Shown here: piece by piece, positions 5,556 through 6,196 of the stretch | Layout of the letters: each line of letters opens with the position of its first letter | Position numbering within the stretch: position 1 is the stretch's first letter | Position numbers and translations under genes: made by a program | Notes under the pieces: model-generated | What the model saw: only the letters and a program-made list of their open reading frames with translations | What the model was told of the DNA's origin: nothing | The model's database searches: none | IMG/VR virus record: IMGVR_UViG_2690316321_000005 | Length of the DNA: 18,942 bases | Reading direction: 5' to 3' (one strand) | DNA from: a virus | Taxonomy: Duplodnaviria; Heunggongvirae; Uroviricota; Caudoviricetes

Positions 5556-5583
5556 CCAAAAATAAAGGCCGGCTATGCGGCCT
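5556..5583 (-). terminator. Intrinsic terminator immediately after the 207-aa accessory ORF
   Basis: Minus strand: GGCCG-catagc-CGGCC followed by TTTATTTTT. The hairpin overlaps the stop codon of ORF 5573..6196. Confidence 0.5.
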
Positions 5584-6196
5584 CGGAAGGAAGTCCAATC
5601 ATCTTATTCAAATCTTCTACCCGTAAAGCAGGAAGTGCTGTACTTGCTTTATCTGCTTCTTTTGGTAGCAATTCTTTGCTTTCAGGCCAAACTTCAATAA
5701 GTCGCTTAACTGTTGTTACTGAGTTCAAAGCAGCCCATACATTTGATTCGATATCCTTTTTCAAGGCTTCAAGGTTTTGTTGCAATGCGCAGATTTCATC
5801 AAACCTTTTTGTTATTTCGTGTTCTGCGTCAAACATGCATTTATCTTTGGTTGGAGTAGGGAGCAATATATCTTCGCCGTTGCCGTCTTTCCCATATGAA
5901 TGCCATCCAACCCTTCTGCCAGATACAGTCAGATAAATTGAAGTAGAACGAACATCGTATGAGTAAAATGAACATCCCATCTTTTCAAGTTCTTCACTTA
6001 TAGCTACCAACTTGGATGATAACTGATCCACTTCCTCAGTTTTCTTTTTACCGCCAAACGCAATAACTCTGGCGTCAAGTGCAAGCTGGTTCTTTAACTT
6101 TGTTACTTCTTCAAGTTCAGTGAAAACCCCAGACTTAATTAAAGCGTTACGAGCGATTTCCTCTTTCATTCTCGTAGTTAAGCGGATTGATGACAT
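5573..6196 (-). CDS. Hypothetical protein (207 aa), AT-rich accessory gene (moron) in the pL operon
   Basis: ATG at 6196 with GAGAGG SD 8 nt upstream; the track ORF's upstream extension to 6256 is in a frame overlapping the N remnant and starts at a TTG. Hydrophilic, Lys/Glu-rich, no family recognised. Noticeably more AT-rich than flanking phage genes; terminators on both sides. Confidence 0.7.
   Translation of the reverse strand: MSSIRLTTRMKEEIARNALIKSGVFTELEEVTKLKNQLALDARVIAFGGKKKTEEVDQLSSKLVAISEELEKMGCSFYSYDVRSTSIYLTVSGRRVGWHSYGKDGNGEDILLPTPTKDKCMFDAEHEITKRFDEICALQQNLEALKKDIESNVWAALNSVTTVKRLIEVWPESKELLPKEADKASTALPALRVEDLNKMIGLPSEAA

Follow-up and report, generated by a model that had tools for sequence, protein, structure and literature searches.

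What does a 207-codon gene do in the left early operon of a lambdoid prophage, in the slot where lambda carries sieB and ral, and is it as unfamiliar as it looks from its letters? The window, which here means the whole 18,942-nucleotide stretch of viral DNA that was analyzed, contains the early region of a lambdoid prophage. Its minus strand reads, in order, a cI-like repressor (7295-7945), N, a Nun homolog, the gene in question, cIII/kil (about 5077-5348), and then Rad52, ssb, and abc2. The initial annotation described an AT-rich gene that could not be assigned to a family, set between terminators in a moron architecture and consistent, by position, with a defence or anti-defence function.

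The gene does belong to a family. Its product matches Pfam PF18757 (Nmad5) with E = 3.5e-71 and 239.9 bits against a gathering cut-off of 27 bits, with residues 4-203 covering profile positions 1-206 of 206, so the statement that it cannot be placed does not survive. It also matches phrog_1965 (E = 1.5e-83, 281 bits, positions 2-208 of 208). The RefSeq entry for the identical protein, WP_049084739.1, is named 'Nmad5 family putative nucleotide modification protein' by PGAP; Escherichia coli 382634_2f carries a stretch 100% identical to window positions 5400-6700 that encodes it, and phages mEp235 (mEp235_037) and HK542 have 98% identical copies annotated as hypothetical. Both gene and family are already catalogued and named in RefSeq and Pfam, and the 'unrecognised gene' is not novel. 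Other weak Pfam matches (Rbsn, YfjL_C, and others) fell far under their thresholds and were disregarded, and Rfam yielded no RNA elements on either strand. PHROG 1965, a neighbour family of phrog_1565, is annotated as of unknown function.

A profile search of 1.84 billion representative proteins recovered 2,287 Nmad5 clusters at 50% identity (E <= 1e-3), nearly all of them stand-alone proteins of ∼200 amino acids, and the family is common in virulent phages, including Dhillonvirus, YuA-like, and N4-like phages. The window protein has the same length, the same single full-length domain, and the same WPE...LNxxIGLP motifs as mEp235_037, the HK542 copy, YuA gp15, and the proteins of Dhillonvirus SM_A8 and SMS22. 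All of the family motifs are present in it, namely the N-terminal R-L-T...N-A..K.G, the GG, and the C-terminal T.K[KR]L...WPE..ELLP and LPA..V.DLN..IGLP.

The ORF product begins MSSIRLTTRMKEE. Since M-S-S-[IV]-R-L-T opens every homolog in the alignment, ATG 6196 is the true start, and a longer ORF from TTG 6256 was set aside as an artefact. In frame-0 translation, the Shine-Dalgarno sequence overlaps the TGA stop of an N-gene remnant. The gene has a GC content of 40.1% (GC3 33.7%) compared with 46.6% for the window, and its neighbours nun (37%) and N (41.5%) are equally AT-rich. Among 80 IMG/VR loci with 95-100% identical copies, which represent 58 nucleotide alleles, dN/dS has a median pairwise value of 0.27 and a pooled value of 0.31. 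Across these loci, the C-terminal motifs are invariant among close alleles, and changes fall mostly in the beta-region. The ORF is a real gene under purifying selection. Much of the first description of the locus thus holds, including the minus-strand ORF of 207 codons, the good Shine-Dalgarno sequence, the AT-richness, and terminators on both sides, which are hairpins with T-runs at 6333-6316 and 5584-5565 (Table 1).

Table 1. Features of the Nmad5 locus in the window.
Feature	Position	Strand	Remarks
N antiterminator, functional, HK620 type	6673-6978	minus	First gene of the pL operon; mEp235_039 annotation; arginine-rich motif in ORF
nun (HK022 Nun-type transcription termination factor homolog)	6332-6676	minus	Direct upstream neighbour of Nmad5
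Intrinsic terminator of nun	6316-6333	minus	Directly after the nun stop codon; hairpin/T-run scan
N antiterminator 3′ remnant	6208-6300	minus	About 31 codons, ending ...NRIYYSKPRSEMGVTCVGRQKMKLGSKPLI*; recombination joint
Shine-Dalgarno sequence GAGAGG	6204-6209	minus	7 nt 5′ of ATG 6196; read directly from sequence
Nmad5-family gene	5573-6196	minus	207 aa + stop; identical to RefSeq WP_049084739.1
Intrinsic terminator-like hairpin	5565-5584	minus	Overlaps the Nmad5 stop codon, then TTTATTTTT; 3′ end of the cassette
Backbone segment common to lambda	5410-5560	minus	Equals lambda 33840-33992; ea10 5′ end and upstream sequence
ea10 remnant, 31 codons	5399-5494		Included in the conserved backbone segment
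Further terminator	5438-5421		In the backbone segment; scan and folding

The upstream side of the gene records its recent history. The placement between N and cIII was imprecise, in that a functional N lies further up and the direct upstream gene is nun, identified from its mEp235 counterpart, which is annotated 'transcription termination factor Nun, similar to HK022'. The upstream terminator (folding energy -10.3 kcal/mol, z = -2.2 against shuffled sequences) is missing from carriers where N or ral abuts Nmad5; it belongs to nun and not to the Nmad5 cassette. What separates it from Nmad5 is largely the remnant of another N, whose translation matches the C-terminus of an intact 99-amino acid N-like protein in E. 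coli KS-NP019. There, the N stop codon precedes the Nmad5 ATG by 11 nt and overlaps the Shine-Dalgarno sequence. N lies 61 nt upstream of Nmad5 in PhiR12_1, and nucleotide homology among Nmad5 carriers starts at about 6260-6300. Because window positions 6300-6208 are the C-terminus of the N that is intact in KS-NP019, the ancestral layout is N followed directly by Nmad5 on one transcript, and in the window and mEp235 a different N, together with nun and its terminator, has recombined in upstream of Nmad5.

On the downstream side, the hairpin at the stop codon folds at -11.2 kcal/mol, a value not exceptional against shuffled sequences (z = -1.2). The 150-bp backbone segment beyond it matches lambda, phage 21, and Stx phages in megablast searches, with lambda homology beginning at 5560.

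This anatomy bears on how the gene is expressed. A consensus-based scan, which could miss a weak or activator-dependent promoter, found no sigma-70 promoter between the terminators (6316-6197). Because no promoter was seen and Nmad5 is coupled to N in relatives, the operon layout suggests that its transcription starts at pL, depends on N antitermination, and occurs soon after infection or induction, and that the gene, lacking a separate promoter, stays off while the prophage is repressed. In HK022, nun is expressed in the lysogen. Transcripts of this kind would be expected to stop at the nun terminator, before reaching Nmad5. The moron label therefore fits in part: the downstream terminator and the difference in GC content (40% vs 46.6%) agree with it, but there is no sigma-70 promoter between the terminators, the upstream terminator is that of nun, and the spacer is an N remnant. 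The Nmad5 gene is not a classic moron.

The slot itself was recognized correctly as equivalent to that of ral and sieB, and its contents differ from phage to phage. The interval between N and the backbone segment contains sieB, orf28, and ral in lambda and ral in phage 21; HK106 has an 83-amino acid ORF there without known function, and mEpX2 has two small ORFs without known function. Lambdoid Nmad5 always sits between N and ea10/cIII, and its carriers are mosaic on both sides. Upstream is either Nun or N of at least three types; downstream is ea10 plus cIII, or cIII, followed by Bet/Exo, Erf, or Rad52 modules. The gene occurs in 211 of 5,426 complete E. coli genomes, whereas a 1.3-kb query that includes its flanks matched 2,255 genomes, so it is accessory, and the initial annotation's own sign to the contrary, a gene universally core in lambdoid phages, does not apply.

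In 11 of the 80 IMG/VR loci, a lambda-type ral lies directly 5′ of Nmad5, its stop codon 36 nt ahead of the Nmad5 start codon. Such loci show Nmad5 to be a separate single-gene module, able to accompany ral rather than replace it. It resembles the N-proximal pL cargo of lambda (Ral, sieB, and orf28) in its slot, in the logic of N-dependent early expression, and in being small accessory cargo. Ral, in contrast, is a 66-amino acid protein without sequence or fold similarity to Nmad5. Where both occur, Nmad5 supplements ral, and any anti-restriction activity of Nmad5 itself would be hypothetical.

The name of the family points elsewhere, to nucleotide modification. Its founding paper is said to be that of Iyer et al. 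in 2013, and the family was reportedly named for its association with modification genes. In phage YuA, gp15 (Nmad5) directly follows two 5-hmdU DNA kinase genes (PF18748 and PF18723), lies two genes from a dU hydroxymethylase, and is close to DNA polymerase A. The same cassette is given for phage SN1/M6 (PMC9476957). This kinase/hydroxymethylase context is the origin of the name. The window copy differs from it in lying in a lambdoid pL operon, and modification genes are missing beside Nmad5 both in the window and in all 80 of its close relatives. Among the contexts surveyed, modification genes accompany Nmad5 only in YuA-like phages and in one other lineage, so their presence describes a setting and does not define the family. 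The prophage in the window does have a Dam methyltransferase (11988-12575), and a linkage between the two was considered and rejected, as mEp235 has Nmad5, with NinB abutting NinE and no methyltransferase at that place.

Elsewhere in the family, settings vary. Dhillonvirus SM_A8 carries Nmad5 in a two-gene cassette on the strand opposite to the surrounding head genes, and in three metagenomic siphovirus contigs (L009, L010, and L012) it lies between terminase and the portal, MuF, and capsid genes. It is found in the nin region of Salmonella phage SPN3UB, and in one other temperate phage it occupies the early-left operon beside DUF4406 and MT-A70. Clustering of the neighbours at 84 diverse loci, drawn from 22 Nmad5 lineages, gave no neighbour family shared by more than 5 lineages, and an obligate partner gene was therefore rejected. 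The largest recurrent synteny, a DUF2800 PD-(D/E)XK nuclease, an Enc34-type ssDNA-binding protein, Nmad5, and DNA polymerase A, covers about 28 loci in 3-4 of the 22 lineages, a pattern that common descent could explain. The family is found in DNA-metabolism modules or in known variable slots.

Nmad5 was also compared with defence catalogues. PADLOC-DB v2 contains no family matching Nmad5, even at E <= 1. Nmad2 (PF18753) carries the same 'nucleotide modification associated domain' label and is likewise associated with 5-hmdU kinase genes. DefensePredictor validated a defence system that contains this NMAD domain, but Nmad2 is a Pfam family distinct from Nmad5. The parallel was judged irrelevant, as the DefensePredictor supplement lists PF18753, and neither Nmad5 nor PF18757 appears in it.

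The predicted structure offers a different view of the protein. An AlphaFold2 model built from a 47-sequence alignment is confident (pLDDT 87.5, pTM 0.74) and places N-terminal helices at 8-22, 24-47, and 50-72, a small beta-sheet at about 86-122, a long helix at 127-158, three short helices at 163-183, and a low-confidence tail at 183-207. The model has no match among solved structures, and no characterised protein shares its fold. Conservation was scored over 143 diverse members with a median identity of 30%, counting positions conserved in at least 80%. These comprise R5, L6, A18, K21, G23, R43, G48, G49, G93, T162, L166, W170, P171, E172, E175, L176, P178, L196, N197, G201, and P203, all of which are present in the window protein, together with I14, V153, L188, P189, and L202. 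By kind, the conserved residues are glycines, prolines, and hydrophobic residues plus R5, K21, R43, T162, E172, E175, and N197, with no conserved His, Cys, Asp, or Ser across the 143 members. The protein has no recognisable catalytic fold and no conserved set of catalytic residues, a pattern with which a novel enzyme would still be compatible.

The best-conserved segments are 161-182 and the tail 183-207. The tail is disordered in the monomer model, yet it contains an invariant N197 and near-invariant L196, G201, and P203. Together, these segments form a C-terminal module, T-x-K-[KR]-L-x-x-x-W-P-E-x-x-E-L-x-P ... L-P-A-x-x-V-x-D-L-N-x-x-I-G-L-P, that hardly varies among phages of Alpha-, Beta-, and Gammaproteobacteria. 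Such a conservation pattern suggests a partner-binding module rather than an active site, and the target would probably be a conserved part of the machinery for DNA replication or recombination, or of housekeeping immunity.

An indirect connection to immunity comes from a distant homolog in Dhillonvirus, the subject of the one experimental study that bears on the family. Spontaneous mutants that escape the Tmn defence carry K216E (PhiSMA8) or K296E (PhiSMS22) in Nmad5, and reverting the mutation restores sensitivity to Tmn (PMC11846954). In the same study, deletion of nmad5 gave viable phage that did not escape Tmn, and the gene could not be cloned and was apparently toxic (PMC11846954). As deletion leaves Tmn sensitivity unchanged, Nmad5 is not just the trigger of Tmn, and its connection with that system may be an indirect one. 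In SM_A8, the protein matches Pfam Nmad5 over its full length, and K216 falls in the alignment opposite R165 of the window copy, the basic residue directly before the invariant L166 in T-x-K-[KR]-L-x-x-x-W-P-E. This position is K or R in 74% of the 143 family members.

A second early phage protein, RIIB of T2, offers a comparison. RIIB is associated with the replisome and directly activates Tmn, and a single residue decides activation (PMC13001434, a 2026 preprint). Both proteins are tied to Tmn by single-residue escape substitutions, and Nmad5 is often encoded within replication modules. They differ in that expression of RIIB alone activates Tmn, whereas deletion of nmad5 leaves Tmn sensitivity in place. 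Homology between the two was rejected (hhalign probability 0.5%).

Taken together, these observations lead to a tentative reading that falls just short of probable: Nmad5 would be an N-dependent, early, probably non-enzymatic binding protein at the interface of phage DNA metabolism and host immunity. It would be produced when pL fires and N antiterminates, and so only in early lytic growth or induction, and the lambdoid copy would serve lytic growth rather than protection of the lysogen. The protein would be a helical bundle with a small beta-sheet, and probably not an enzyme; its C-terminal module would most likely bind some conserved component, of host or phage origin, where phage DNA is being replicated or recombined. 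Such docking would shield phage DNA metabolism, or favour it, when the host interferes, a form of counter-defence in the broad sense of Ral or Gam, and Tmn and similar immune sensors would read, or be influenced by, the same C-terminal surface. The link to DNA metabolism draws on the nuclease-SSB-Nmad5-polymerase synteny, the placement in YuA, the lambdoid copy adjoining ea10 and recombination genes, and the association of RIIB with the replisome. The link to immunity draws on the Dhillonvirus K-to-E escape substitution, which maps to R165 in the conserved motif, and non-enzymatic binding is suggested by the confident model, the conservation pattern, and the conserved disordered tail. That the protein would act alone is suggested by the lack of any widely shared neighbour family. 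Within this reading, roughly equal odds go to a protective factor associated with the replisome or recombination and to a Ral- or Gam-like neutralizer of a conserved host function. Counted against the reading were the siphovirus copies among head genes, the confinement of the replication synteny to 3-4 of 22 lineages, and the unchanged Tmn sensitivity of Dhillonvirus after nmad5 deletion.

Other explanations were weighed on the same evidence. Nmad5 could serve solely to block one particular defence system by binding an immune protein, such as a Tmn/KAP-type NTPase or a restriction system, without a role in DNA metabolism. Its place in the ral slot, its pairing with ral, its patchy, accessory distribution, a moderately high dN/dS of about 0.3, and a variable beta-region would all suit such a protein, as would the Dhillonvirus genetics, where the gene is dispensable and the K-to-E change, in contrast to deletion, behaves as a gain of function against Tmn, which fits a specificity retargeted by one surface change. 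This explanation is nevertheless unlikely: a C-terminal motif that is near-invariant over phages of three proteobacterial classes argues for a universally conserved target and not a patchy defence system, wild-type Dhillonvirus Nmad5 gives no protection from Tmn (PMC11846954), and the recurrent placement in replication modules is left unexplained. That Nmad5 is instead an enzyme, or an obligatory cofactor, of a phage DNA base-modification pathway that shields phage DNA from restriction is distinctly unlikely, despite the family name, the YuA and SN1/M6 cassettes, the DUF4406 and MT-A70 neighbours in one temperate-phage lineage, and the Dam methyltransferase in the window prophage. Modification genes are missing from around Nmad5 in the window and its 80 close relatives, none recurs among neighbours over the 22 lineages, and mEp235 keeps Nmad5 with no methyltransferase in the corresponding nin slot. 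The protein has neither an enzyme-like fold nor conserved catalytic residues, and a paper reconstituting thymidine hypermodification pathways makes no mention of Nmad. Moreover, replication genes alternate with the modification genes in YuA-type phages, and it may be replication that Nmad5 is associated with.

The defence half of the initial annotation would make Nmad5 a prophage defence or superinfection-exclusion gene, a functional equivalent of sieB or rex that guards the lysogen. It shares the slot of lambda sieB, lies directly 3′ of nun (itself an exclusion factor expressed from the prophage), is AT-rich with terminators on both sides, and has a homolog whose toxicity on cloning is compatible with an abortive-infection effector (PMC11846954). 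An exclusion role is disfavoured because PADLOC has no match, no promoter was detected, and the family is abundant both in strictly virulent phages and within replication or head modules. In relatives, Nmad5 is coupled to N or follows ral without an intervening terminator, so that its expression should require de-repression of pL, and the nun terminator would halt nun transcripts of the prophage state before Nmad5. Exclusion is thus very unlikely, and counter-defence or host takeover is the more plausible half of the proposed either/or, with function read mainly from position. Here the ral/sieB slot, the accessory distribution, the pairing with ral, and the family member tied to Tmn escape are what stand in favour of a role in the conflict between phage and host. 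It is extremely unlikely that Nmad5 is a head-associated or packaged (injected) protein, as its location in SM_A8 and the three contigs might suggest. The lambdoid gene belongs to the early pL operon, a long way from the late genes, SM_A8 Nmad5 runs opposite to the head genes like an inserted cassette, Dhillonvirus remains viable after nmad5 deletion, and the gap between terminase and portal is another variable slot.

A bolder form of the docking-protein reading, which is doubtful as it stands, would hold that Nmad5 is misnamed. It would not be a nucleotide-modification family but an early, stand-alone docking family (>2,000 clusters at 50% identity) whose C-terminal module contacts a conserved replication or recombination component and is itself a surface watched by host immunity such as Tmn. 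In siphoviruses and lambdoid phages, Nmad5 would in that case correspond to RIIB as a replisome-associated factor visible to immunity, or else represent a new counter-defence family of broad spectrum. The database name is in any case probably misleading: it rests on context in one phage group, and fold, conservation, and context across more than 100 loci argue against an enzyme and for an early protein that binds a partner. The lambdoid copy could help explain how Tmn-type sensors see siphoviruses, and it is a tractable one, as it occupies the ral slot in a genetically easy background (mEp235 and HK542), forms a single-gene cassette, and has R165 at the position to which the Tmn-escape residue maps.

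The gene immediately upstream of Nmad5 (the PF18757-family gene under study), which the initial annotation took to be N, is instead homologous to Nun, the transcription-termination (exclusion) factor of HK022; it matched no Pfam or PADLOC model. This homolog lies between Nmad5 and an HK620-type functional N, and the prophage therefore encodes both N and Nun. Between the nun terminator and the Nmad5 start lies the 3′ end of a second N antiterminator gene, different from the other N and intact in E. coli KS-NP019 (99 aa), and this remnant marks a recombination joint.

Beyond Nmad5, a remnant of lambda ea10 is retained together with the ea10 upstream region (5410-5560), with the remainder of the gene absent; some related Nmad5 carriers have the full ea10 (DUF2528). 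The remnant is followed by two terminator-like hairpins beyond the one overlapping the Nmad5 stop codon, and thus three successive terminators precede cIII.

Features of the window surrounding Nmad5
Feature	Position	Strand	Match or basis
ea8.5-like gene	1554-1835		
Ead/Ea22-like gene	2038-2739	-	
193-aa ORF	2703-3284	-	phrog_614
Rad52/Rad22-family recombinase, pseudogene	4252-4822	-	comparison with intact copies
Terminator-like hairpin	5400-5381		
Terminator-like hairpin	5438-5421		
lambda ea10 remnant, 31 codons (MSLVTKQEP...)	5399-5494	-	
3′ end of second N, about 31 codons	6208-6300	-	
HK022 Nun homolog	6332-6676	-	
Phage Dam-type N6-adenine DNA methyltransferase	11988-12575	+	PF05869, E = 1e-64
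252-aa ORF	15161-15919	+	phrog_1521, E = 2e-154

By sequence comparison, the Rad52/Rad22-family recombinase gene of the window is a pseudogene. In mEp235 and E. coli 382634_2f the gene is intact, at 708 bp; in the window, 137 bp are missing from its interior, with an 8-bp microhomology, GCAATGAA, on the flanks of the deletion, which breaks the gene into two ORFs that are out of frame (4604-4822 and 4252-4677). The interval from abc2 to int/xis holds b-region-like cargo, comprising the ea8.5-like gene, the Ead/Ea22-like gene, and the adjacent 193-aa ORF, which had no Pfam match and belongs to a family of unknown function.

The Dam-type methyltransferase gene is located in the nin region, flanked by ninB and ninX-like genes; in mEp235, a phage whose Nmad5 is 98% identical, the Dam-type methyltransferase showed no linkage to Nmad5. 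Closely 3′ of the Q antiterminator gene (14300-14923), in the slot that stx occupies in Stx phages, the 252-aa ORF is a further unassigned cargo gene, positioned where the AT content of the window is highest (GC about 0.32-0.36). It matched nothing in Pfam or PADLOC, and its phrog family is of unknown function.

In many Stx2a-converting phages (records LC616038-LC616070, about 11130-11653), the match to Nmad5 covers residues 34-207 only, and this partial match, which carries no annotation, occurs at two places per record. It is possible that the Stx2a phage lineage carries Nmad5 in a truncated or frameshifted form.
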